Of a stretch of 10,904 nucleotides of DNA, positions 1,251 through 10,904 are shown one piece after another. The stretch lies in contig JBJOHD010000141.1 in assembly GCA_046047875.1 (NCBI GenBank), positions 1 through 10,904 on the forward strand, given 5' to 3'. The stretch comes from Pseudomonadota bacterium. GTDB taxonomy: Bacteria > Bdellovibrionota_C > UBA2361. A program made the position numbers and the translations under genes. A model generated the notes under the pieces. That model ran no database searches and had not been told where the DNA came from. It saw only the letters and a list, made by a program, of their open reading frames with translations. How positions within the stretch are numbered: position 1 is the first letter of the stretch; each line of letters opens with the position of its first letter.

Positions 1251-1961
1251 TCAATCAGAGAGGTCCCGAGTCCCCTCATAAATATAAGCGATTCCGCCAC
1301 TCAAAGGGTCGTAGCGGGTAGCCGAAAACCCCGCCTCTCTGAGGATTACCTCGAAATCCCCCCCAGACGGGAACGCCTTGGCGGTTTCCGGAAGATAGGT
1401 GTACGCCGAGCGATTGCCTGTGAGAAGCCCCCCGATCCACGGCATCAACATCCTCGAGTACCAATTATAAACCGCTCGAAAGGGGGCCCACGTCGGCTGA
1501 CCGAATTCGAGGATGACGAGCTTTCCCCCCGGAGCGAGTACCCGGCGGATCTCTTTGAGCCCACGCCGGAGGTCTTCGAGGTTACGAACACCGAAGGCGA
1601 CCGTTACCGCCGTAAAGGTTCGATCGGGAAACGGCAGATTGAGCGCGTCGCACTGCACGAGAGGCGCAGCCGATCTCCCCCTCTCCCGCCCCCGCTCAAG
1701 CATCGGCAGACAAAAGTCGCCCCCCACCACACCGGTCACGCGACGCTCGAGAAGGGGCAAAAGATCGCCCGTTCCGGTGCACAGATCGAGCACCGGACCA
1801 GCACCGCGGGGCACCCGTCTCACCACCAGGTGTTTCCACAGATGATGAATCCCCAGGCTCAGTACCGAGTTAGTAAGATCGTACCGAGCGGCGATAGAGC
1901 CAAACATCCGTTGAACTTCGGAGCCAATAACCCGCGGAGTGGAGGTGGAAGAGGTTTCCAT
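1251..1961 (-). CDS. menG: Demethylmenaquinone / ubiquinone C-methyltransferase (UbiE/MenG family, class I SAM methyltransferase). The start is uncertain: ATG at 1959-1961, or GTG at 1995-1997 as in the ORF track.
   Basis: Translation shows UbiE/MenG hallmarks: FGSIAARYDLTN (the F..IA..YD.MN motif), LDLCTGTGD (the SAM-binding GxGxG motif), VRNLEDLRRGLKEIRRVLAPGGKLVILEF and GNRSAYTYL. Length is ~236-248 aa. TGA stop is at 1251-1253. Confidence 0.88.
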   Translation of the reverse strand: METSSTSTPRVIGSEVQRMFGSIAARYDLTNSVLSLGIHHLWKHLVVRRVPRGAGPVLDLCTGTGDLLPLLERRVTGVVGGDFCLPMLERGRERGRSAAPLVQCDALNLPFPDRTFTAVTVAFGVRNLEDLRRGLKEIRRVLAPGGKLVILEFGQPTWAPFRAVYNWYSRMLMPWIGGLLTGNRSAYTYLPETAKAFPSGGDFEVILREAGFSATRYDPLSGGIAYIYEGTRDLSD

Positions 1962-1997
1962 AAGGAGCTTATACAGGATCACGGGAAACGTTACCAC

Positions 1998-2078
1998 TCA
2001 CGGCCGATTCGATTTGGTTCAGTTCACCCCCCCGATGTGGTAGATTCCCCGCATCTCGGCCCCTTGATGGAGTTTCGT
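1998..2078. promoter_or_regulatory. Divergent intergenic region between menG (minus) and the dehydrogenase gene (plus). GGAG Shine-Dalgarno at 2069-2072 sits 6 nt upstream of the ATG at 2079. A weak -10-like TAGATT is at 2041-2046.
   Basis: An 81-bp non-coding gap separates two divergently oriented genes. The SD was seen directly. The promoter hexamers are weak matches only. Confidence 0.3.
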
Positions 2079-4538
2079 ATGGTTTCCGATCGCCTCCCCT
2101 CCCACGCCCGCGTCGTCGTCATCGGCGGGGGCATCATCGGCTGCTCGGTGGCGTATCATCTCGCCAAAATGGGCTGGAAGGATGTCGTCCTCCTTGAGCG
2201 CGACAAGATTACCTCCGGCACGACGTGGCACGCCGCGGGGCTTATGGTCACCTTCGGCTCAACCTCAGAGACCTCGACCGAGATCCGCAAATATTCGAAG
2301 AAGCTCTATCAAGAGCTGGAGCGCGAGACCGGCCAAGCCACCGGGTTTAAACCGGTAGGATTCATCGAAGTCGCAGCGGATGAGGATCGTCTTGAGGAAT
2401 ATCGCCGGGTCGCCGCCTTCAATCGATTTTGCGGGGTGGATGTGGCGGAGATATCCCCTGCCGAAATCTCAGCGCTCTTTCCATACGCTCAAGTCGACGA
2501 CCTTCTCGCCGGATTTTACGTCAAAGATGACGGGCGGGTGAACCCGGTCGATGTCACGATGGCTCTTGCCAAGGGGGCACGGCTTCACGGCGCGCAGATC
2601 CTCGAAGGGGTCCCGGTGAGCTCAGTCCTCCGTCACAACGGAGCCGTGACCGGAGTGGCTACCCCGCTCGGCGAGATACGGGCGGAATACGTGGTGAATT
2701 GCACCGGGATGTGGGCGCGACAGCTCGGCGAAGAGCTCGGTATCACCATCCCCAATCAAGCTGCGGAGCACTACTACCTTATTACCGACGATATCCCGGG
2801 GATCCCCCGAGATCTTCCAGTTCTGGAGGACCCCGCTTCGTACGGATACTACCGCGAAGAGGTCGGAGGGCTGATGATCGGGCTTTTCGAACCGGTTGCA
2901 GCACCGTGGAAACTTGAGGGCATCCCCAACGATTTTTCGTTCGGCGACCTTCCACCTGACTGGGATCGGATGACCCCCTTCCTTGAAAAGGCGATGGCGC
3001 GGGTGCCGGCCTCGCTGAGCGTCGGTATTCGGAAGTTTTTTTGCGGCCCCGAGAGCTTCACCCCTGATCTCCGACCGATAGTTGGCGAAGCTCCTGAGCT
3101 GAAGAACTACTTCGCAGCGGCCGGGATGAACTCGATCGGGATTCTGTCTGCGGGGGGGCTCGGTCGCGTGCTTGCACACTGGATCATAAACGGCGCTCCC
3201 GATGTAGATGTGACCGGTTTTAATATCGACCGCTTCCACCGTTATCAAGCGAACCGCGCCTATCGGCGTGAGCGAACGATCGAATCGCTCGGACTCGTCT
3301 ACAAATGCCACTATCCGACAAAGACCGCTGAGACCGCACGGGACGCAAAGCGTTCTCCGTTTCATGAGCGACTCAAAAAAGCCGGCGCATTCTTTCGAGA
3401 TGTGAGCGGCTGGGAGAGCCCCGACTGGTACGCCCCCTCTGGGAGCGACCCGCGGGTAGAGCGACTTTCATGGGGCCGGCAGAACTGGTTCCCGTACTGG
3501 GCCGCGGAGCACCGCGCCGCCCGCGAGGGAGCGATCATCATGGACATGAGCTTTATGTCGAAGTTTCTTGTTCAAGGGCGGGATGCGGGGCGGGTGCTCG
3601 ATTACGTCTCTGCAAATAAGGTAAACGGTCAGATCGGCGTTATTACCTACACCCAATGGCTGAACCATCACGGAAAGATCGAAGCCGACCTTACCGTAAC
3701 GAAGCTTGAGGAGGATCGTTTCTTGGTGGTGGTCACCGATACGATGCATCGGCACGCCGAGACCTGGCTCAAGCGACACATCCCCGAGAGCGCCCACGCC
3801 TTCGTGACCGATGTGACCTCCGGGTTTGCGCAGTTAAACGTACAAGGGCCGCGAGCACGCGAGCTTCTTCAGTCGCTTACCACCGCGGATCTCTCGAACG
3901 AAGCGTTTCCATTCCGAGCAGCTCGAGAGATCGACATCGGCTTCGCACGGGTACTGTGCATCCGTATCACCTATCTTGGAGAGCTGGGCTATGAGCTCTA
4001 CATCCCCGCCGAGCAGGCTGTGCATGTGTACGATCTCATCGTGGAGGCGGGTCAGCGGTTCGAACTCCGTCACGCCGGCCTCAAGGCGCTCTCCAGCCTC
4101 AGGATGGAGAAGGGTTACCGCGACTATGGACACGATATCGATAATACCGATGATCCGTTCGAGGCGGGGCTCGGATTTGCAGTGGATCTAAAACGCTCCG
4201 AAGATTTTATCGGTCGGGCGATGGCGGAACGATCCAAGGCCAACGCTCCCTACAAGCGGCGCCTCGCTCAGCTCCTCGTTCTCGATCCCACACCCCTTCT
4301 CTTTCACGCCGAAGTGGTCTTTCGAAACGGTGCGGCGGTCGGTTATGTGCGGGCGGGGTCGTACGGTCATACGCTCGGCGGTGCGGTCGGTCTTTTCATG
4401 ATCGAAGCAGGCGAGCCGATTAACCCAGCGTATATCGAGCAGGGTGCTTGGGAGGTTGAGGTCGCGGGGAAACGGTATCCGGCGCGGGTATCGTTGAAAC
4501 CGCTCTACGATCCCGAGATGCAGCGAATCAAAATGTAG
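2079..4538 (+). CDS. Dimethylglycine/sarcosine dehydrogenase-family enzyme: an N-terminal FAD-dependent oxidoreductase (DAO) domain fused to a C-terminal GcvT-like folate-binding aminomethyltransferase domain, ~819 aa.
   Basis: The N-terminus has a Rossmann FAD-binding motif, ARVVVIGGGIIGCSVAYHLAKMGWKDVVLLERDKITSGTTWHAAGLM. The C-terminal half has a GcvT-like region (YWAAEHRAAREGAIIMDMSFMSKFLVQG, LGELGYELYIP). The ORF-track start at 1830 overlaps menG on the opposite strand. The ATG at 2079 (alternative 2067) is preceded by GGAG and gives the ~10-residue lead-in to the GGG motif typical of the family. TAG stop is at 4536-4538. Confidence 0.9.
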   Translation: MVSDRLPSHARVVVIGGGIIGCSVAYHLAKMGWKDVVLLERDKITSGTTWHAAGLMVTFGSTSETSTEIRKYSKKLYQELERETGQATGFKPVGFIEVAADEDRLEEYRRVAAFNRFCGVDVAEISPAEISALFPYAQVDDLLAGFYVKDDGRVNPVDVTMALAKGARLHGAQILEGVPVSSVLRHNGAVTGVATPLGEIRAEYVVNCTGMWARQLGEELGITIPNQAAEHYYLITDDIPGIPRDLPVLEDPASYGYYREEVGGLMIGLFEPVAAPWKLEGIPNDFSFGDLPPDWDRMTPFLEKAMARVPASLSVGIRKFFCGPESFTPDLRPIVGEAPELKNYFAAAGMNSIGILSAGGLGRVLAHWIINGAPDVDVTGFNIDRFHRYQANRAYRRERTIESLGLVYKCHYPTKTAETARDAKRSPFHERLKKAGAFFRDVSGWESPDWYAPSGSDPRVERLSWGRQNWFPYWAAEHRAAREGAIIMDMSFMSKFLVQGRDAGRVLDYVSANKVNGQIGVITYTQWLNHHGKIEADLTVTKLEEDRFLVVVTDTMHRHAETWLKRHIPESAHAFVTDVTSGFAQLNVQGPRARELLQSLTTADLSNEAFPFRAAREIDIGFARVLCIRITYLGELGYELYIPAEQAVHVYDLIVEAGQRFELRHAGLKALSSLRMEKGYRDYGHDIDNTDDPFEAGLGFAVDLKRSEDFIGRAMAERSKANAPYKRRLAQLLVLDPTPLLFHAEVVFRNGAAVGYVRAGSYGHTLGGAVGLFMIEAGEPINPAYIEQGAWEVEVAGKRYPARVSLKPLYDPEMQRIKM

Positions 4539-4541
4539 CCG

Positions 4542-4916
4542 TCATGCGGCTCGCTCACGGGGGCCGCCCGGCGCCTGTTCACCACCCCGCATCACCACCT
4601 GAGTTGTATGGCGCTCTGGGGCCAGCCCCTGAAGGAGCACCTCAAGGGCTCGCTCGACCTCGCCCCCGCACATTAAAACATCGAAGCTCACGTACCCGTC
4701 CTCCGGCCATGAGTGGAGTGCCACATGGGACTCAGCGAGGAGCACGAACGTGGTCACCCCGTGCGGAGAAAATGTATGGGTCTTTGATTCGAGTACGGTG
4801 GCCCCTGCTGCCGCCGCGGCCTCACGTAAAAGCGCCTCGAGGCGGGGGGCCGAATTCGAGATCTCCGATGACACACCCCAACAATCGACCAAAATATGGC
4901 TCACACGCCGCTGCAT
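4542..4916 (-). CDS. speH: S-adenosylmethionine decarboxylase proenzyme, class 1 pyruvoyl-dependent (SpeH/SpeD-like), ~124 aa from the ATG at 4914-4916. The ORF track extends it to a TTG at 4995-4997.
   Basis: The diagnostic autoprocessing motif is VLLAESHVALHSWPEDGYVSFDVLMCGG, matching the AESH(I/L)(S/T)IH(T/S)(W/F)PE core of small bacterial AdoMetDC. The predicted pyruvoyl-forming Ser codon is at 4728-4730. N-terminus MQRRVSHILVDCWGV aligns with the MxxxGRHxxxELxGC start of Bacillus-type SpeH. The 27 extra codons back to the TTG have no homologous counterpart. Confidence 0.88.
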   Translation of the reverse strand: MQRRVSHILVDCWGVSSEISNSAPRLEALLREAAAAAGATVLESKTHTFSPHGVTTFVLLAESHVALHSWPEDGYVSFDVLMCGGEVERALEVLLQGLAPERHTTQVVMRGGEQAPGGPRERAA

Positions 4917-5061
4917 CGCCCGCTCACTTTGACGAGATATGAAAACTGATTGGAGCAAATACCCCTCTATGCTAGAAGTCTCTCTAACCGGAGACAAGGA
5001 GAATCAGCTCCAGCTCCACTTCTCGTGGCGTTTTCTAAACGATACTATTTTCGCAAGGCCT
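4917..5061. promoter_or_regulatory. 145-bp divergent control region between speH (minus) and the SPFH operon (plus). It contains the tandem direct repeat CAGCTCCAGCTCC (5005-5017), a TTGACG hexamer at 4929-4934, and AAGG at 5055-5058 just upstream of the ATG at 5062.
   Basis: This is the only sizeable non-coding gap in the right half. Both flanking genes start here and diverge. Hexamer matches are weak and no operator palindrome was identified. Confidence 0.35.
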
Positions 5062-6060
5062 ATGAGCATACTCGGTTTTATCGGCAAACAGTTTATCGAT
5101 GTCATTGAATGGACTGAGCCAGGTGACGGAATCCTCGCTTTTCGGTACCCGATGCGCGATCAGGAGATTCAAAATGGGGCCAAACTGACGGTGAGAGACA
5201 CTCAGGCTGCGCTCTTCGTCAACGAGGGCAGAGTAGCAGACCTCTTCGGCCCGGGACTTCACACCCTGACGACGAACACGCTGCCGATAATGACGAACCT
5301 GCAGAATTGGGATAAGGCCTTCGCCTCACCGTTTAAGTCCGATGTCTATTTCTTTAGCTCTCGGCTCCAACTCGACCAAAAATGGGGCACCGCTACACCT
5401 ATCACCGTCCGAGATAAGGAATTCGGGGTGCTCCGTATCCGAGCCTACGGGAACTTCTCATATCATGTAGCTGATCCGAAAACATTCTATCTCAAGGTAT
5501 CGGGCACCCGCGATGTCTTCCGAACAGCGGATCTCGATGGACAGCTGAAATCACAGGTAGCGACGGCGCTCGCGACGATGCTTGGGGCGAGCGACTGTGC
5601 CTTTATCGACATGGCAGCTAACCAAGCGAATTTCTCCGCCGCCCTCGGCGAGGCGGTTGCGCCGACCCTCACCCAATTCGGTCTCGCCCTTGATGGTTTT
5701 CAGGTTGAAAGTATCTCCCTGCCAGCGGAGCTCGAGAAGCGCCTCGACGAGCGCGCGATGGTCACGATGGTGGGCGGGCTGCGACAGTACGCCCAGTTTC
5801 AAGCGGCATCAAGTATTCCAGAAGCTGCAGCTAACCCAGGCGGGGTCGCCGGCGCCGGGGCTGGCATTGGTGCAGGTCTCGCGATGGGGCAGATGATGGC
5901 GCAGTCACTCGGAGTCGGCGCTCCCGGAGGCAGCGGAAGCGCCTCGCCAGGCGAGAATCCGCTCGAAACGATTGAGAAACTGCACGAACTTTTTAAGAAA
6001 GGCATGCTCTCCGAGAGTGAGTTCACCGCGAAGAAAGCGGATCTCCTCAAAAAGATATAA
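5062..6060 (+). CDS. SPFH/Band-7-like protein (Band_7_1-type, YdjI-like) with a Gly/Ala-rich linker and a C-terminal SHOCT-like oligomerisation domain, ~332 aa.
   Basis: N-terminus MSILGFIGKQFIDVIEWTEPGDGILAFRYPMRDQEIQNGAKLTVRDTQAALFVNEG matches the remembered start of Band_7_1 proteins (M..F.FIKKQFIDVIEW...YRYPM.D.EIQNGA.L.VRE.Q.ALFVNEG). The low-complexity stretch AAANPGGVAGAGAGIGAGLAMGQMMAQSLGVGAPGGSGSASPG lies at ~5821-5958. The C-terminus LETIEKLHELFKKGMLSESEFTAKKADLLKKI (5959-6057) fits the SHOCT pattern L..L..L...G.IS.EEF...K..LL. The ORF-track start at 4939 adds 41 residues with no counterpart and would leave only 22 bp to speH. Confidence 0.8.
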   Translation: MSILGFIGKQFIDVIEWTEPGDGILAFRYPMRDQEIQNGAKLTVRDTQAALFVNEGRVADLFGPGLHTLTTNTLPIMTNLQNWDKAFASPFKSDVYFFSSRLQLDQKWGTATPITVRDKEFGVLRIRAYGNFSYHVADPKTFYLKVSGTRDVFRTADLDGQLKSQVATALATMLGASDCAFIDMAANQANFSAALGEAVAPTLTQFGLALDGFQVESISLPAELEKRLDERAMVTMVGGLRQYAQFQAASSIPEAAANPGGVAGAGAGIGAGLAMGQMMAQSLGVGAPGGSGSASPGENPLETIEKLHELFKKGMLSESEFTAKKADLLKKI

Positions 6061-6066
6061 TCTCCG

Positions 6067-6690
6067 ATGCAACGCATACCGTGCCCACAGTGTGGTGCTG
6101 AGGTCGAGTTCACCTCGAGGTCCTCGGTTTTTTCGGTATGCCGCTACTGCTCGAGCACCCTGCTCCGAAGCAGCTTTGATGTACGTCTCCTCGGCCAGAT
6201 GGCCGCGCTTCATGAAGATCCGACCGTCTTTCAACTCGGCACTACCGGAGTTTACGACAACGACTCATTCGAGCTTATCGGCCGAGTACAAAGGCGCTGG
6301 TCGGGGGGGATGTGGAACGAATGGCATATGTTTTTCGGCGGCGAGAGAAGTGCGTGGCTGGCGGAGGCTCAGGGCTTCTTGATGGTAAGCTCGCTCCGGC
6401 CGGTCGCGGCGCCCGACGAATCCACACTTCGCATCGGCGCCCGAATCGATATCGACCGTGTCGTTTTCACGGTAAAAGATATCAAAGAGGTACTTGCAAG
6501 CTTCGCCGAGGGCGAGCTCCCCTTTGCTGCCGAGCAAGGGTCGAAGATGCGCAGCATCGACCTCACGGGACCGGGGCGCTTGGTGGCAACGCTCGGATAT
6601 AGCGAGGGCGGTGGCGAGGTATACATCGGCGAGATAGTCGAGTTCTCGGAACTTCAGTTTAAACGAATGCGGGAATTCAATGGCTCGTGA
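6067..6690 (+). CDS. Zinc-ribbon protein with a DUF4178-like body (YdjG-like), 207 aa.
   Basis: N-terminus MQRIPCPQCGAEVEFTSRSSVFSVCRYCSS carries a CxxC...CxxC C4 ribbon at codons 6, 9, 25 and 28 (nt ~6082-6153). The remainder is soluble with W-rich motifs (WSGGMWNEWHMFFGGERSAWLAEAQGFLMV) and is paralogous to the next gene. It lies 6 nt after the SPFH stop. Size falls in the range remembered for DUF4178 proteins. Confidence 0.7.
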   Translation: MQRIPCPQCGAEVEFTSRSSVFSVCRYCSSTLLRSSFDVRLLGQMAALHEDPTVFQLGTTGVYDNDSFELIGRVQRRWSGGMWNEWHMFFGGERSAWLAEAQGFLMVSSLRPVAAPDESTLRIGARIDIDRVVFTVKDIKEVLASFAEGELPFAAEQGSKMRSIDLTGPGRLVATLGYSEGGGEVYIGEIVEFSELQFKRMREFNGS

Positions 6691-7945
6691 ATCGCCGTTC
6701 ATAAAGCCCTTTCTCTGTCCCGCTTGTGGGGCGCCGCAGACCATCCGTGCGCTCGGCAAAACTATCGAATACAGCTGCACAAGCTGTGGCTCCCTCATCG
6801 ATATCACCGCGGAGCCGTTCTCAGTTCTCGCCGCCGCGGCGAACGCCCGTGCTCACGAACCGAAGATCCCCCTCGGCCAACGGGGAATGCTGCAGGGTAT
6901 CGCCTTTGAGTGCATCGGTTTCATGATCCGTACCGATCCCTCGCTACAATATCCGTGGGAGGAGTATCTTCTTTTTAATCCGTATCACGGATTTCGGTGG
7001 CTCATAACGATGAACGGTCATTGGAACTTTGTTACTCCGGTGTTCGGCCTCTCAGAGACACCGGAGGAGGACGTCTTAACCTACGAGGGACGAACGTACT
7101 CTATATTCTTAAGAGACTCCGCTATCGTACAGTACGTACAAGGTGAGTTCTACTGGCAGGTAAAGGTCGGCGACAGGGTCAACGTTCGGGAGTATATATC
7201 CCCGCCGTTTACACTTTCAGTCGAAGTGGATGAAAACGAACAGAACTTCGCCCACGCTGAGTATCTCCAGCATTCCGAGGTTGAAACCGCTTTCGCTCTG
7301 GAACCGAAGTCGCTACCGCAGCCGAGCGGGATCTTCCCGAATCAACCCTCACCCCATCTCCACAATCGCTTCTTTTACGTTATCGGCACCCTCGTGGTCC
7401 TCCCCCTTCTTTTCGTTATTCATTTCATGCTCCAGCGACCGCCCGAACCGGTCACCGCAGTGTCGGGCACCGCATTCCCCGGAACTTCTCCCTCCCCCCT
7501 AACGACAGAGACGGTTGAGTTTTTAGACCACGGAAACCTTGGATTTCTCCTGCAGAGTCCCGTTCTAAACTCATGGGTGGACGCAGAGATAGGGATAGTG
7601 AACGCCGACACCGGCGCCACCACCGAGACATCAGTGGGAGTTTCGTACTTCCACGGCCTCGAAAGCGGGGAGCGGTGGAGCGAGGGCTCAACAACAAGCG
7701 CCGTCACGGTGGGTGATATCCCGTCTGGTCGGTATTATTTTACCGTCCAAGCGACTAACGGAGCCTCGCCGTCTCAAAAAGCGCCTCAACCGTTCAGCCT
7801 CTCGATTAGACGACATGTTTCGTATTTGAGTAATTTATTCCTCGCGATTGTAGTAGCCTGTCTCCCCCTCGCCTTGAATCTCCTCCGAGGAATCAGCTTC
7901 GAAAGTCGGCGGTGGAATAATTCAACCGAAACAAACTCGGGTTAA
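6680..7945 (+). CDS. Zinc-ribbon / DUF4178-like paralog extended by two TM helices flanking a ~130-aa extracytoplasmic domain, 421 aa.
   Basis: C4 ribbon FLCPACGAPQ...YSCTSCGS at codons 13, 16, 33 and 36 (nt ~6716-6787). Residues ~75-200 parallel the upstream gene: FECIGFMIRT versus FELIGRVQRR, and YPWEEYLLFNPYHGFRWLITMNGHWNFV versus MWNEWHMFFGGERSAWLAEAQGFLMV. Hydrophobic helix FFYVIGTLVVLPLLFVIHFML spans ~7370-7432. A Ser/Thr/Gly-rich beta-looking domain spans 7433-7825. A second helix YLSNLFLAIVVACLPLALNLL spans ~7826-7885, followed by a short basic tail. The start overlaps the previous stop (ATGGCTCGTGA at 6680-6690). Confidence 0.7.
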   Translation: MARESPFIKPFLCPACGAPQTIRALGKTIEYSCTSCGSLIDITAEPFSVLAAAANARAHEPKIPLGQRGMLQGIAFECIGFMIRTDPSLQYPWEEYLLFNPYHGFRWLITMNGHWNFVTPVFGLSETPEEDVLTYEGRTYSIFLRDSAIVQYVQGEFYWQVKVGDRVNVREYISPPFTLSVEVDENEQNFAHAEYLQHSEVETAFALEPKSLPQPSGIFPNQPSPHLHNRFFYVIGTLVVLPLLFVIHFMLQRPPEPVTAVSGTAFPGTSPSPLTTETVEFLDHGNLGFLLQSPVLNSWVDAEIGIVNADTGATTETSVGVSYFHGLESGERWSEGSTTSAVTVGDIPSGRYYFTVQATNGASPSQKAPQPFSLSIRRHVSYLSNLFLAIVVACLPLALNLLRGISFESRRWNNSTETNSG

Positions 7946-8120: not shown

Positions 8121-8330
8121 ATGCTTAATTCATCGACGATGATCTCTTCGCTGGTTTACTCGCTGGTTGGAATGGTGACGTTCGTGTTCGGATTTTGGCT
8201 CTTCGACCGCCTCACCCCCTACAAACTTTGGGAAGAGATCGTTGAGCACAAGAATGTAGCGCTCGCAATCGTTGTCGGCGCCGGCGCTATCGCGCTTGGC
8301 CTGATCATCGGCTCGGCAATTCACGGATAG
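8121..8330 (+). CDS. DUF350-like small inner-membrane protein (YjfL-like), 69 aa, two TM segments.
   Basis: Sequence is MLNSSTMISSLVYSLVGMVTFVFGFWLFDRLTPYKLWEEIVEHKNVALAIVVGAGAIALGLIIGSAIHG. The central motif LTPY...EEI.E.KN.A.A between two hydrophobic helices is what I recall as the DUF350 signature. GGAGG SD at 8111-8115 lies 5 nt before the ATG. Confidence 0.7.
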   Translation: MLNSSTMISSLVYSLVGMVTFVFGFWLFDRLTPYKLWEEIVEHKNVALAIVVGAGAIALGLIIGSAIHG

Positions 8331-8338
8331 TTGAATCG

Positions 8339-9835
8339 ATGGACGCCGTTCTTCTCGCCTCGGTGTTTATCGTCGCTACGTGCGGACTCGTCTATGAGCT
8401 TGTCGCAGGAACGGTAGCAAGCTATCTTCTCGGCGATTCGGTCACCCAATTCTCGACTGTCATCGGGACCTACCTGTCAGCGATGGGTGTTGGGTCGTAC
8501 CTGGCGCAATTCGTGAAAAGGAGGCTCCTCGAAACTTTTGTTCGGATCGAGATCGTTCTGGCGCTTATCGGCGGAACTTCTGCGACCCTGCTCTTCCTCA
8601 CCTTCGAGTTCGTTACCTCGTTCCGTTTGGTTTTGTACGGACTCGTCTTCGTCATAGGGATGTTCGTTGGGCTGGAGATTCCCCTCTTGCTCCGAATCCT
8701 GCGAGACCGCATCGAGTTCAGCGCGCTGATATCCCGGGTGTTAAGCTTTGACTACCTCGGCGCTCTCGCGGCCAGCGTTCTCTTTCCCCTCATACTGGCC
8801 CCCCAGCTCGGACTTGTGCGAACAGCGTTCCTCTTCGGTCTGATGAATGCTGCGGTCGCGTTATGGGTGCTGGCGGTGCTGGGTGACCGACTTCCCTCTC
8901 GCCGTGCGCTCGCCGCCTCAGCTTGGGTAGTCTTTGCGCTGCTTCTTGGAGGGTTCATCGGTTCGAATTCCTTGGTGGCATTCGCCGAGGCGGGGATTTA
9001 CGCAGACCCGGTTATCTATGCTAAAACCACTCCGTACCAGCGGATCATCCTCACTAACTCCCCCCGGGAGACTAAGCTTTTTCTCAACGGAGCTCTCCAA
9101 TTTAGTTCGCGTGACGAATATCGATATCATGAGGCGCTCGTCCATCCTGGCTTAAGCGCGATTAAAGACCCCCGACGGGTGCTGATCTTGGGCGGAGGCG
9201 ATGGCCTCGCCGCCCGGGAGGTGCTGCGCTACCCCACGGTTGAGGCGATCGTGCTCGTCGACCTCGACCCGGCGATTACCGACCTCTTTCGCTCAAGCGA
9301 ACTCCCTCGCTCCCTTAACGACGACGCCTTAAATTCTCCGAAGGTCACTGTGATTAACGCGGATGCCTTCCGCTGGCTCAAGGAGTATAACGGCCCCTCG
9401 TTTGACTTCATTATCGTCGACTTCCCCGACCCTACTAATTTCTCCCTCGGAAAACTCTATACAACAACTTTCTACCGTTCGGTAAAACGGGTAATGGGGC
9501 CTCAGAGCCGTGGCGTGATTCAAAGCACCTCACCGCTTCTCGCTCGACGCTCCTTTTGGTGCATCCACAATACCGTGGCATCGATCGGAGTCACTACCCT
9601 CCCCTATCACGTCTATCTTCCCTCGTTTGGCGAGTGGGGCTTCGTTCTTTTTACCTCCGATCCCAGTCCCTTTTCCCCCACTTTTCCCCCGAACCTCCGC
9701 TTCATCGACGCCGAAACTTTCTCGGTGATGCGCCGCTTCGCGCCCGATATGTCGCAGCTTCAAACTGAGATAAATCGTCTCGATAATCAGATCCTGGTCT
9801 CATATTACGAGAACGAGTGGTCGGAGTACTTATGA
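8339..9835 (+). CDS. speE: Membrane-anchored polyamine aminopropyltransferase: spermidine/spermine-synthase catalytic domain fused to an N-terminal ~210-aa polytopic membrane domain, 498 aa.
   Basis: The C-terminal half carries SpeE catalytic motifs: RVLILGGGDGLAAREVLRY (GGGDG at ~9191-9205) and DFIIVDFPDPTNFSLGKLYT (~9404-9433, the D..D.P amine-binding segment), plus PYQRIILTNSP near the domain start. The N-terminal 8339-~8975 encodes ~7 hydrophobic helices (for example IVLALIGGTSATLLFLTFEFV and VLFPLILAPQLGLVRTAFLFGLMNAAVALWVLAVLG). It starts 8 nt after the DUF350 stop. Confidence 0.85.
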   Translation: MDAVLLASVFIVATCGLVYELVAGTVASYLLGDSVTQFSTVIGTYLSAMGVGSYLAQFVKRRLLETFVRIEIVLALIGGTSATLLFLTFEFVTSFRLVLYGLVFVIGMFVGLEIPLLLRILRDRIEFSALISRVLSFDYLGALAASVLFPLILAPQLGLVRTAFLFGLMNAAVALWVLAVLGDRLPSRRALAASAWVVFALLLGGFIGSNSLVAFAEAGIYADPVIYAKTTPYQRIILTNSPRETKLFLNGALQFSSRDEYRYHEALVHPGLSAIKDPRRVLILGGGDGLAAREVLRYPTVEAIVLVDLDPAITDLFRSSELPRSLNDDALNSPKVTVINADAFRWLKEYNGPSFDFIIVDFPDPTNFSLGKLYTTTFYRSVKRVMGPQSRGVIQSTSPLLARRSFWCIHNTVASIGVTTLPYHVYLPSFGEWGFVLFTSDPSPFSPTFPPNLRFIDAETFSVMRRFAPDMSQLQTEINRLDNQILVSYYENEWSEYL

Positions 9836-10904
9836 GCGGTACACCGTTCTCCCGTCGTCGTTTCATCGCAGGGGGACTCGGTTCGCTCGCCGCTTTCAGC
9901 GGCGTAACGAGGCTGAACAGCTCTGAGGTGCCGGTGGTTCCGAGTGTCATCCACGGTGCGACACACCGGGTGGGGCACCTTCTCAGATCGGTTACGCCGC
10001 TCCCGCCCCCGTCGACTCGCCGCAGCACCCGAGTGGCTATCGTCGGAGGCGGTATCGCCGGGTTATCAGCTGGATGGTGGTTATCCCGCAATGGCTTTCA
10101 CGACTACATCGTTCTGGAACTTGAGGATGCTCTGGGGGGAACTGCGCTAAGCGGTGAGAATTCGATAACACCCTTCCCCTGGGGTGCCCACTATGTGCCG
10201 ACACCCGGCAAAGATGCTCGCTACGTCCGAACTTTCTTTGAAGAGATCGGTGCGATTACAGGCTACGACGACTCCGGCGAACCGACCTACGATGAATTGA
10301 TGCTATGCGGCGCTCCCGAGGCCCGTCTTTTCATCCACGGTCGATGGCAAGAGGGGCTTCTTCCCGCAACCGGACTCGCTCACCGAGACTCGGCTGAGCA
10401 GGCGAGATTCTTCGCCCTGCTTGACCGGTTTCGTAGTGCGATCGGTTCTGACGGACGACCCGCATTCACGATACCGGCTCATCTATCCTCCCGCGATCCT
10501 GAGTACCGTCGGTTTGATAGCATCACCTTTGCTGAACTGATGCGGCAGTGGGGACTCTCCTCTCCTTATTTAAATTGGTATATCGACTACTGCTTCCGCG
10601 ATGACTTCGGTGCCCTCAGCACACGTATATCTGCCTGGGCCGGACTGCATTACTTCTGCGCTCGGAGCGCTACAGGGTCGAACGGGCGGGAGCTCCTTCT
10701 CACCTGGCCGGAGGGAAATGGATTCCTCGTAAAGGAACTCCGGCGCCGAATCAGCGGGGAGATACTCACGCAAACACTCGTTACGGGGATAATCCCGACG
10801 AAAAATGGGGTCGCAGTCGAGTTCCTCGACCTGAAGAGAAGCTCCCGGGGAGCGCTTGATGTTGAGGCAGTAGTCTACGCTGCTCCGCGATTCACCGCTC
10901 CGTT
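9832..10904 (+). CDS. Tat-signal FAD-dependent oxidoreductase (amine-oxidase-like), partial: C-terminus off the window, ≥357 aa.
   Basis: The ATG at 9832 overlaps the speE-like TGA (ATGA). GGAG lies 5 nt upstream. The N-terminus MSGTPFSRRRFIAGGLGSLAAFSG is a twin-arginine (S-R-R-x-F-L/I) signal followed by an h-region. The dinucleotide-binding motif RVAIVGGGIAGLSAGWWLSRNGFHDYIVLELEDALGG (~10036-10140) is typical of FAD amine oxidases and renalase-like proteins. The frame stays open to the window end. Confidence 0.75.
   Translation, partial: MSGTPFSRRRFIAGGLGSLAAFSGVTRLNSSEVPVVPSVIHGATHRVGHLLRSVTPLPPPSTRRSTRVAIVGGGIAGLSAGWWLSRNGFHDYIVLELEDALGGTALSGENSITPFPWGAHYVPTPGKDARYVRTFFEEIGAITGYDDSGEPTYDELMLCGAPEARLFIHGRWQEGLLPATGLAHRDSAEQARFFALLDRFRSAIGSDGRPAFTIPAHLSSRDPEYRRFDSITFAELMRQWGLSSPYLNWYIDYCFRDDFGALSTRISAWAGLHYFCARSATGSNGRELLLTWPEGNGFLVKELRRRISGEILTQTLVTGIIPTKNGVAVEFLDLKRSSRGALDVEAVVYAAPRFTAP

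Follow-up and report, generated by a model that had tools for sequence, protein, structure and literature searches.

A run of three genes at positions 5,062–7,945 of a 10,904-nucleotide stretch from a Pseudomonadota bacterium (GTDB Bdellovibrionota_C; contig JBJOHD010000141.1 of assembly GCA_046047875.1) encodes an SPFH protein followed by two zinc-ribbon/DUF4178 proteins, here termed DUF4178a and DUF4178b. With a probability of roughly 0.9, this trio belongs to a conserved eight- or nine-gene aminopropyltransferase cassette. An initial annotation, made from the letters without database searches, had treated it as a cassette of three genes resembling the ydjGHI envelope module of Bacillus. The trio instead runs on into a micro-open reading frame (micro-ORF), a DUF350 gene, a gene for a membrane-fused spermidine synthase-like protein (fused SpdSyn) and a gene for an FAD-dependent amine oxidase-like protein, with an S-adenosylmethionine decarboxylase (AdoMetDC) gene divergent upstream; all lie in the window (the whole 10,904-nucleotide stretch) and all are conserved. 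The cassette is an already described, functionally uncharacterised type of membrane operon, and the window is a further member that reveals no new kind of system. What is shown is which genes the cassette contains, their order and conservation, the topology predicted for their products, and that pspA is absent from the vicinity.

The window is an entire contig of a metagenome-assembled genome (MAG), and conservation of the gene context was therefore judged from relatives. The cassette is widespread: when a single genome was scanned for each GTDB species, close SPFH relatives were found in at least 583 species-level genomes from at least five phyla, and 80 loci were examined. The hosts are Bdellovibrionota, Oligoflexia, Melainabacteria, Burkholderiales, Nevskia, Acidobacteriota and Verrucomicrobiota. 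For operon counts, ORFs were searched with the window proteins in the 54 species-level loci whose downstream sequence reached 6.5 kb or more; DUF4178 was detected in 52, DUF350 in 50, the fused SpdSyn in 52 and the FAD oxidase in 51, and 50–52 of the 54 keep the gene order of the window. Two loci were exceptional, one with a stand-alone SPFH copy and one in which SPFH is followed by an AdoMet_dc-like gene. Precomputed Pfam annotation revealed the same gene order, Band_7_1(-SHOCT), DUF4178, DUF4178, a 43–48-aa ORF, DUF350, Spermine_synth and FAD oxidase, in six neighbourhoods (L001, L003, L005, L087, L089 and L090). The position of the AdoMetDC gene varies: it is found at the 3′ end, divergently upstream (L001, L089, L090 and the window) or, in Acidobacteria, between the SPFH and DUF4178a genes. 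The AdoMetDC of L003 (17739–18593) is of class 2 ('eukaryotic-type', PF01536), while class 1b occupies that operon position elsewhere. In 18 of the 54 loci, from Bdellovibrionota and Melainabacteria, a multi-transmembrane (TM) protein of ~370 aa with no Pfam or NCBIfam match is encoded 3′ of the oxidase (for example, in L003, L008 and L005, 16555–17664).

The trio is co-directional and tightly packed, and its coordinates and junctions had been read correctly at the outset; in the ORF table the SPFH and DUF4178a genes are separated by 6 nt and the DUF4178a and DUF4178b genes overlap by 11 nt. The deposited SPFH protein has 373 aa and starts at 4939. The start at 5062, as initially annotated, is preferred because SPFH homologs are 327–335 aa long and align from residue 1. 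Over-long SPFH (from 4939) and AdoMetDC (from TTG 4997) ORFs would overlap head to head.

The SPFH protein matched Band_7_1 (PF13421) with E = 2.1e-71 (240.3 bits versus a cut-off of 24) and, at its C terminus, SHOCT (PF09851, residues 303–329) with E = 2.7e-7 (30.5 bits versus a cut-off of 27). Both matches exceed the Pfam gathering score, in agreement with the initial assignment. The SHOCT fusion had also been called atypical, but SHOCT is present on 113 of the best 120 SPFH homologs (precomputed Pfam), out of at least 7933. No TM segment or N-terminal anchor was detected in the SPFH protein at a Kyte–Doolittle segment threshold of 1.6, the maximum of 1.02 being reached in the Gly/Ala linker, and a PDB sequence search with this protein gave no match. 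The C-terminal module is interchangeable, with SHOCT in most lineages and a Zn ribbon or GYF_2 elsewhere: in Acidobacteria, the orthologs encoded by this operon carry Zn_Ribbon_1 in place of SHOCT (L057, 10001–11014), and an ortholog from a Nitrospirae MAG (L088, 8908–9993) has GYF_2 at its C terminus.

The zinc-ribbon/DUF4178 assignment of the other two proteins was likewise upheld, as DUF4178 (PF13785, cut-off 25 bits) was matched above the gathering score by both DUF4178a (E = 2.3e-11, 44.4 bits) and DUF4178b (E = 3.3e-16, 60.1 bits), the latter with an additional weak match to a TFIIB-type Zn ribbon. Each protein begins with a CxxC-x(15-16)-CxxC motif, which in DUF4178a reads CxxC-x15-CxxC. 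Among orthologs from other genomes, the CxxC...CxxC pattern is kept in 40 of 41 for DUF4178a and 37 of 38 for DUF4178b, and C13, C16, C33 and C36 of DUF4178b are invariant in an alignment of 87 homologs. The two had been proposed to be duplicates and are indeed paralogs, though distant ones (27% identity, E = 0.002); they also cross-match the opposite halves of the fused homolog P0178 (E = 6e-6 and 3e-9). That one is soluble and the other membrane-anchored was borne out by hydropathy, which gave no hydrophobic segment in DUF4178a and two in DUF4178b (233–251 and 387–405). An AlphaFold2 model of DUF4178b built from 87 sequences (predicted local distance difference test score (pLDDT) 92.6, predicted template modelling score (pTM) 0.81) comprises the ribbon (9–51), an all-beta domain (68–196), TM1 (230–251), a second beta-sandwich (256–378) and TM2 (383–413). 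The globular domains are all-beta and jelly-roll-like, with helices confined to the TM segments. In this model the ribbon and first beta domain are predicted to be cytoplasmic, and the second beta-sandwich (256–378) must face the periplasm.

The two DUF4178 genes are fused, with their order kept, in 20 of 52 loci (~40% of lineages) and in many database proteins. The N-terminal half of P0178 corresponds to DUF4178a (39% identity, E = 4e-46) and the C-terminal half to DUF4178b (34% identity, E = 9e-76); a natural DUF4178a–b fusion was modelled by AlphaFold2 with pLDDT 81 and pTM 0.68. As Rosetta-stone evidence, these gene fusions argue that the soluble and the membrane paralog work as one unit. 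In the Nitrospirae locus L088, SPFH and DUF4178 genes occur together with no polyamine genes, and the retention of both there argues that SPFH and DUF4178 are direct partners. Through fusions and co-travel, the comparison thus defines SPFH plus zinc-ribbon-DUF4178 as a unit.

Downstream of the trio is an unannotated micro-ORF preceded by a GGAGG-type ribosome-binding site (RBS). A gene is called at this position in the six neighbourhoods that keep the gene order, and copies from many phyla share a basic and then hydrophobic N terminus. A C-terminal Lys is found in 26/26 aligned copies, preceded by His in 20/26. In Burkholderiales and Nevskia the micro-ORF is absent, and a single TM segment in the fused DUF4178 protein is followed by a Cys/Gly-rich tail ending ...GGHK. 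Among 65 loci with DUF4178 and DUF350, 38 contain the micro-ORF and 27 the fused tail; none contains both and none lacks both. The micro-ORF is a real gene. Fusion of its counterpart to the DUF4178 protein places the tail on the extracytoplasmic side. Assignment of the fused tails to DUF1190 (YjfM-like) was considered and rejected, as in a phmmer comparison of E. coli YjfM with the ORFs of all loci no match fell below E = 0.8 and none lay in the tails.

The enzymatic genes of the cassette are listed with the other features in Table 1. The fused SpdSyn matched Pfam Spermine_synth (E = 1e-35), with a weak match to MFS_1, and NCBIfam NF002956 with 650.9 bits versus a cut-off of 472; its translation contains the GGGDG and DFPDP motifs, and its N-terminal domain has 6–7 hydrophobic segments. 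In 60 homologs of this TM domain, Lys and Arg cluster in alternate loops (2–3, 4–5 and 6–7). Should each of the seven segments cross the membrane, the catalytic domain would be periplasmic, beside the oxidase exported by twin-arginine translocation (Tat) and the Lys-ending tail. A periplasmic location would be unexpected for an enzyme that uses decarboxylated AdoMet. Segments 2 and 7 are weak, and a 6-TM arrangement would put the catalytic domain in the cytoplasm. The start of the FAD oxidase gene overlaps the SpdSyn stop. The oxidase matched NAD_binding_8 (E = 3.7e-11) and Amino_oxidase (E = 4.6e-6) in Pfam and carries an N-terminal SRRRFIAGG sequence of Tat type, with the RR motif present in 38 of 46 homologs; the Tat signal implies that it is a periplasmic flavoenzyme. 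AdoMetDC was identified by Pfam AdoMet_dc (E = 1.7e-31) and by NCBIfam TIGR03330 (107.5 bits versus a cut-off of 75.65), and its translation shows the self-processing-type motif LLAES/HSWPE. Its true start is likely ATG 4916 (MQRRVSHILVDCWG..., 124 aa) rather than TTG 4997, the L001 homolog having 122 aa.

Table 1. Positions and supporting evidence of the features in the 10,904-nucleotide window
Feature	Coordinates	Strand	Description	Basis
UbiE methyltransferase and DAO-GCV_T dehydrogenase genes	further left of AdoMetDC		housekeeping	Pfam
AdoMetDC/SpeD, class 1b	4542..4997	-	divergent from operon	Pfam, NCBIfam, motif
Divergent intergenic region AdoMetDC/SPFH	4917..5061	.	presumed promoters	position alone
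SPFH gene	5062..6060	+	soluble; Band_7_1 27-233, Gly/Ala-rich linker ~255-290, SHOCT 303-329	Pfam, hydropathy
DUF4178a gene	6067..6690	+	soluble C4 Zn-ribbon + DUF4178 protein	Pfam, ortholog motif, fused homolog P0178
DUF4178b gene	6680..7945	+	membrane C4 Zn-ribbon + DUF4178 protein	Pfam, alignment, AlphaFold2, hydropathy
Micro-ORF, 43 aa	7969..8100	+	N-terminal hydrophobic anchor or signal; tail ends ...QHK	RBS, conserved position
DUF350 (YjfL-family) gene	8121..8330	+	2-TM membrane protein	Pfam DUF350 3.9e-17, hydropathy
Multi-TM + spermidine-synthase-like aminopropyltransferase, 498 aa	8339..9835	+		Pfam, NCBIfam, motifs, topology
FAD amine-oxidase-like gene	9832..10904	+	twin-arginine signal (MSGTPFSRRRFIAGG...); cut by contig end	translation, Pfam

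The genes left of AdoMetDC are conserved with the cassette in the closest relative only. Two observations there are unlinked to the cassette: the GTG 1830 start of the DAO-GCV_T gene (1830–4538, + strand) is probably over-called (902 aa versus 819 aa in L001), and a 348-aa ORF at 2–1045 (− strand) lacks a start codon within the window and extends past its left end, its L001 counterpart having no Pfam match. A consensus scan for promoters and terminators gave counts no better than shuffled sequence and no internal terminator signal, and a repeat search of the divergent region 4917..5061 found weak inverted repeats only.

To search for PspA/IM30, a profile hidden Markov model (HMM) was built from three seeds: E. 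coli PspA, which agrees with PDB 4WHE at every residue; Synechocystis Vipp1, from a PDB alignment; and B. subtilis PspA. In the window its best match was E = 0.17, on an antisense ORF, in agreement with the initial statement that the window has no pspA. No PspA was found within ±10 kb in 86 loci (PspA HMM, best E = 0.21), and PF04012 (PspA_IM30) is absent from the precomputed Pfam annotation of seven neighbourhoods (the six named above and L088). A canonical pspA just outside the window, which would make this a conventional Psp locus, is very unlikely given these 86 pspA-free related loci.

A PspA-independent module of this kind had been thought undescribed, but Ravi et al. (2024, mSystems, PMC11237479) name a PspA-less Band-7-SHOCT variant that carries AdoMetDC and polyamine oxidase. 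The operons in their account combine a CesT/Tir-PspA dyad with DUF350 (YjfL), DUF4178, a lipoprotein and a spermine synthase fused to 7TM; in the variant, Band-7 + 2TM + SHOCT replaces the CesT/Tir-PspA dyad, together with DUF350, AdoMetDC and polyamine oxidase. Their source for the linkage to AdoMetDC is Li et al. (2019, Biochem J 476:2579), the title of which points to a polyamine-independent role. AdoMetDCs of this type are reportedly active, but the membrane-fused SpdSyn reportedly makes no spermidine. Our literature search found no functional study of the cassette.

We favour, at somewhat better than even odds, the explanation that the trio is a scaffold or anchor sub-module at the cytoplasmic face of an aminopropylation machine, with SPFH in the slot that PspA-CesT/Tir occupies elsewhere. 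AdoMetDC encoded nearby would supply decarboxylated AdoMet. The soluble SPFH protein would oligomerise on the inner side of the membrane, where a heterodimeric pair of zinc-ribbon-DUF4178 proteins would hold it, a role like that of YdjG/YdjH towards YdjI in Bacillus. This SPFH assembly may organise or gate the aminopropyltransferase/DUF350 machinery, which would, at the membrane, modify an acceptor distinct from putrescine. On the outer face, DUF4178b would act through its periplasmic beta-sandwich, as would the periplasmic flavoenzyme. Sister operons would combine the same enzymatic core with the CesT/Tir-PspA dyad; because SPFH would fill that slot here, no PspA would be needed in cis. The comparison shows PspA and SPFH as alternative partners of one enzymatic core, and the coupling of a membrane-organising SPFH protein to an orphan-substrate aminopropyltransferase poses a problem in both envelope biology and polyamine biochemistry.

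Several points weigh against this explanation. We infer the SPFH–DUF4178 contact and its effect on the enzyme from gene order and fusion, and fold searches with DUF4178 returned generic jelly-roll/beta-sandwich matches alone, with no functional clue. A pspA gene elsewhere in the genome is possible, as the search of this genome covers the 10.9-kb contig.

Within the scaffold explanation, the membrane-anchored, periplasm-facing tail with its invariant C-terminal Lys offers a concrete, speculative candidate for the acceptor or carrier of the aminopropyltransferase, although we regard this role as a long shot. The side chain of the C-terminal Lys would be aminopropylated to give a spermidine-like group on a peptide, by analogy the same kind of product as that of E. 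coli YjfC, and the SPFH/DUF4178 assembly would scaffold the aminopropylation machine. If true, a Lys-tail acceptor would account for the 'polyamine-independent role' of AdoMetDC.

The initial annotation had instead proposed a self-contained envelope-stress sensor or scaffold of YdjGHI type, either PspA-less or dependent on a distant PspA and independent of the polyamine-type genes. Band_7_1 is the family of YdjI, and a YdjI sequence, the ends of which agree with primers in Scholz et al. (2021), aligns over the whole SPFH domain (26% identity, E = 2e-30). This kinship, the YdjI-like Zn-ribbon ending of the Acidobacterial SPFH orthologs, the presence of a zinc-ribbon partner with TM segments, the Nitrospirae SPFH–DUF4178 dyad with no polyamine genes and a 2026 preprint on PspA-independent roles for YdjGHI/SamGHI all speak for such a sensor. 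We nevertheless consider it unlikely, since the trio is tied to DUF350, SpdSyn and the oxidase in 50–52 of the 54 loci, no TPM/YdjH homolog was detected in any neighbourhood, and DUF4178 is all-beta, versus the NTF2-like domain reported for YdjG.

Persistent fusion of the SpdSyn domain to 6–7 TM segments argues against an ordinary spermidine biosynthesis operon (SpeD plus SpeE) that merely adjoins unrelated membrane genes, as does its constant placement between DUF350 and the Tat-signal oxidase and its co-variation with SPFH/DUF4178 across phyla. Ravi et al. (PMC11237479), together with the title of Li et al. (2019), also point to a polyamine-independent role. Although AdoMetDC and the SpdSyn domain both score above NCBIfam equivalog cut-offs and keep catalytic-type motifs, we judge this alternative highly improbable. 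An anti-phage defence or mobile-element cargo module using the SPFH protein has a negligible chance of being correct: nothing specific favours it beyond the uncharacterised state of SPFH and zinc-ribbon proteins, whereas the operon is syntenic across phyla, its flanks are housekeeping (UbiE and DAO-GCV_T), no integrase or repeats were seen, and the trio and DUF350 had no PADLOC match, the SpdSyn domain alone giving a generic methyltransferase-fold match.

Compared with pspA-ydjGHI (samGHI) of Bacillus subtilis, the likeness first proposed holds in part. In both systems the SPFH protein is soluble, belongs to Band_7_1 and has a low-complexity linker as well as a small module at its C terminus, and both encode a zinc-ribbon membrane protein in the same operon, which in Bacillus recruits YdjI; membrane recruitment of YdjI requires YdjG/H (Scholz et al. 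2021). The window differs in having neither pspA nor a TPM-domain YdjH, and Pfam detected no TPM_phosphatase/YdjH among the window proteins or in the annotated neighbourhoods. Its SPFH protein ends in SHOCT rather than a Zn ribbon, an ending that the Acidobacterial orthologs share with YdjI. The initial equation of YdjG with DUF4178 is not supported, as YdjG is described as Zn ribbons, an NTF2-like domain and a TM segment (PMC11237479), whereas the globular domain of the window partner is modelled as a DUF4178 beta-sandwich. The window module is also tied to aminopropyltransferase genes, unlike ydjGHI.

In the E. coli sister operon yjfIJKLMC, as in the window, DUF350 (YjfL) is combined with a polyamine-conjugating enzyme and a protein of membrane-remodelling type, but these are the PspA-family YjfJ and the ATP-grasp peptide-spermidine ligase YjfC rather than SPFH and an aminopropyltransferase; this annotation of YjfC goes back to Pederick et al. 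(2023), cited in PMC11762307. No similarity between YjfM and the Lys-ending tails could be detected. The Shewanella oneidensis SO_3765-type operon consists of lipoprotein, DUF350, TM-spermine synthase, CesT/Tir, PspA, DUF4178 and RHH genes (PMC11237479). As in the window, DUF350 and DUF4178 share an operon with a TM-fused spermine synthase, and the gene directly upstream of DUF350 encodes a small exported protein; the operon differs in having the PspA-CesT/Tir dyad in place of SPFH-SHOCT, a single DUF4178 and no reported zinc-ribbon pair.

The cluster of Li et al. (2019) reportedly likewise links AdoMetDC to a multi-TM SpdSyn fusion and DUF350, with a focus on the enzymes, unlike the SPFH/DUF4178 partners considered here. 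The closest match is the variant of Ravi et al., all the components of which are found in the window: a Band-7 SPFH protein with C-terminal SHOCT, DUF350, AdoMetDC and a polyamine (amine) oxidase-like gene. The '2TM' of that variant corresponds to weakly hydrophobic sequence in the window SPFH protein (Kyte–Doolittle maximum 1.02). The variant is given one sentence, with no example in the supplement text examined, and the paired or fused zinc-ribbon-DUF4178 proteins and the micro-ORF are unmentioned for it. New here are the DUF4178 fusions, in ~40% of lineages, and the obligatory Lys-ending, membrane-anchored tail.

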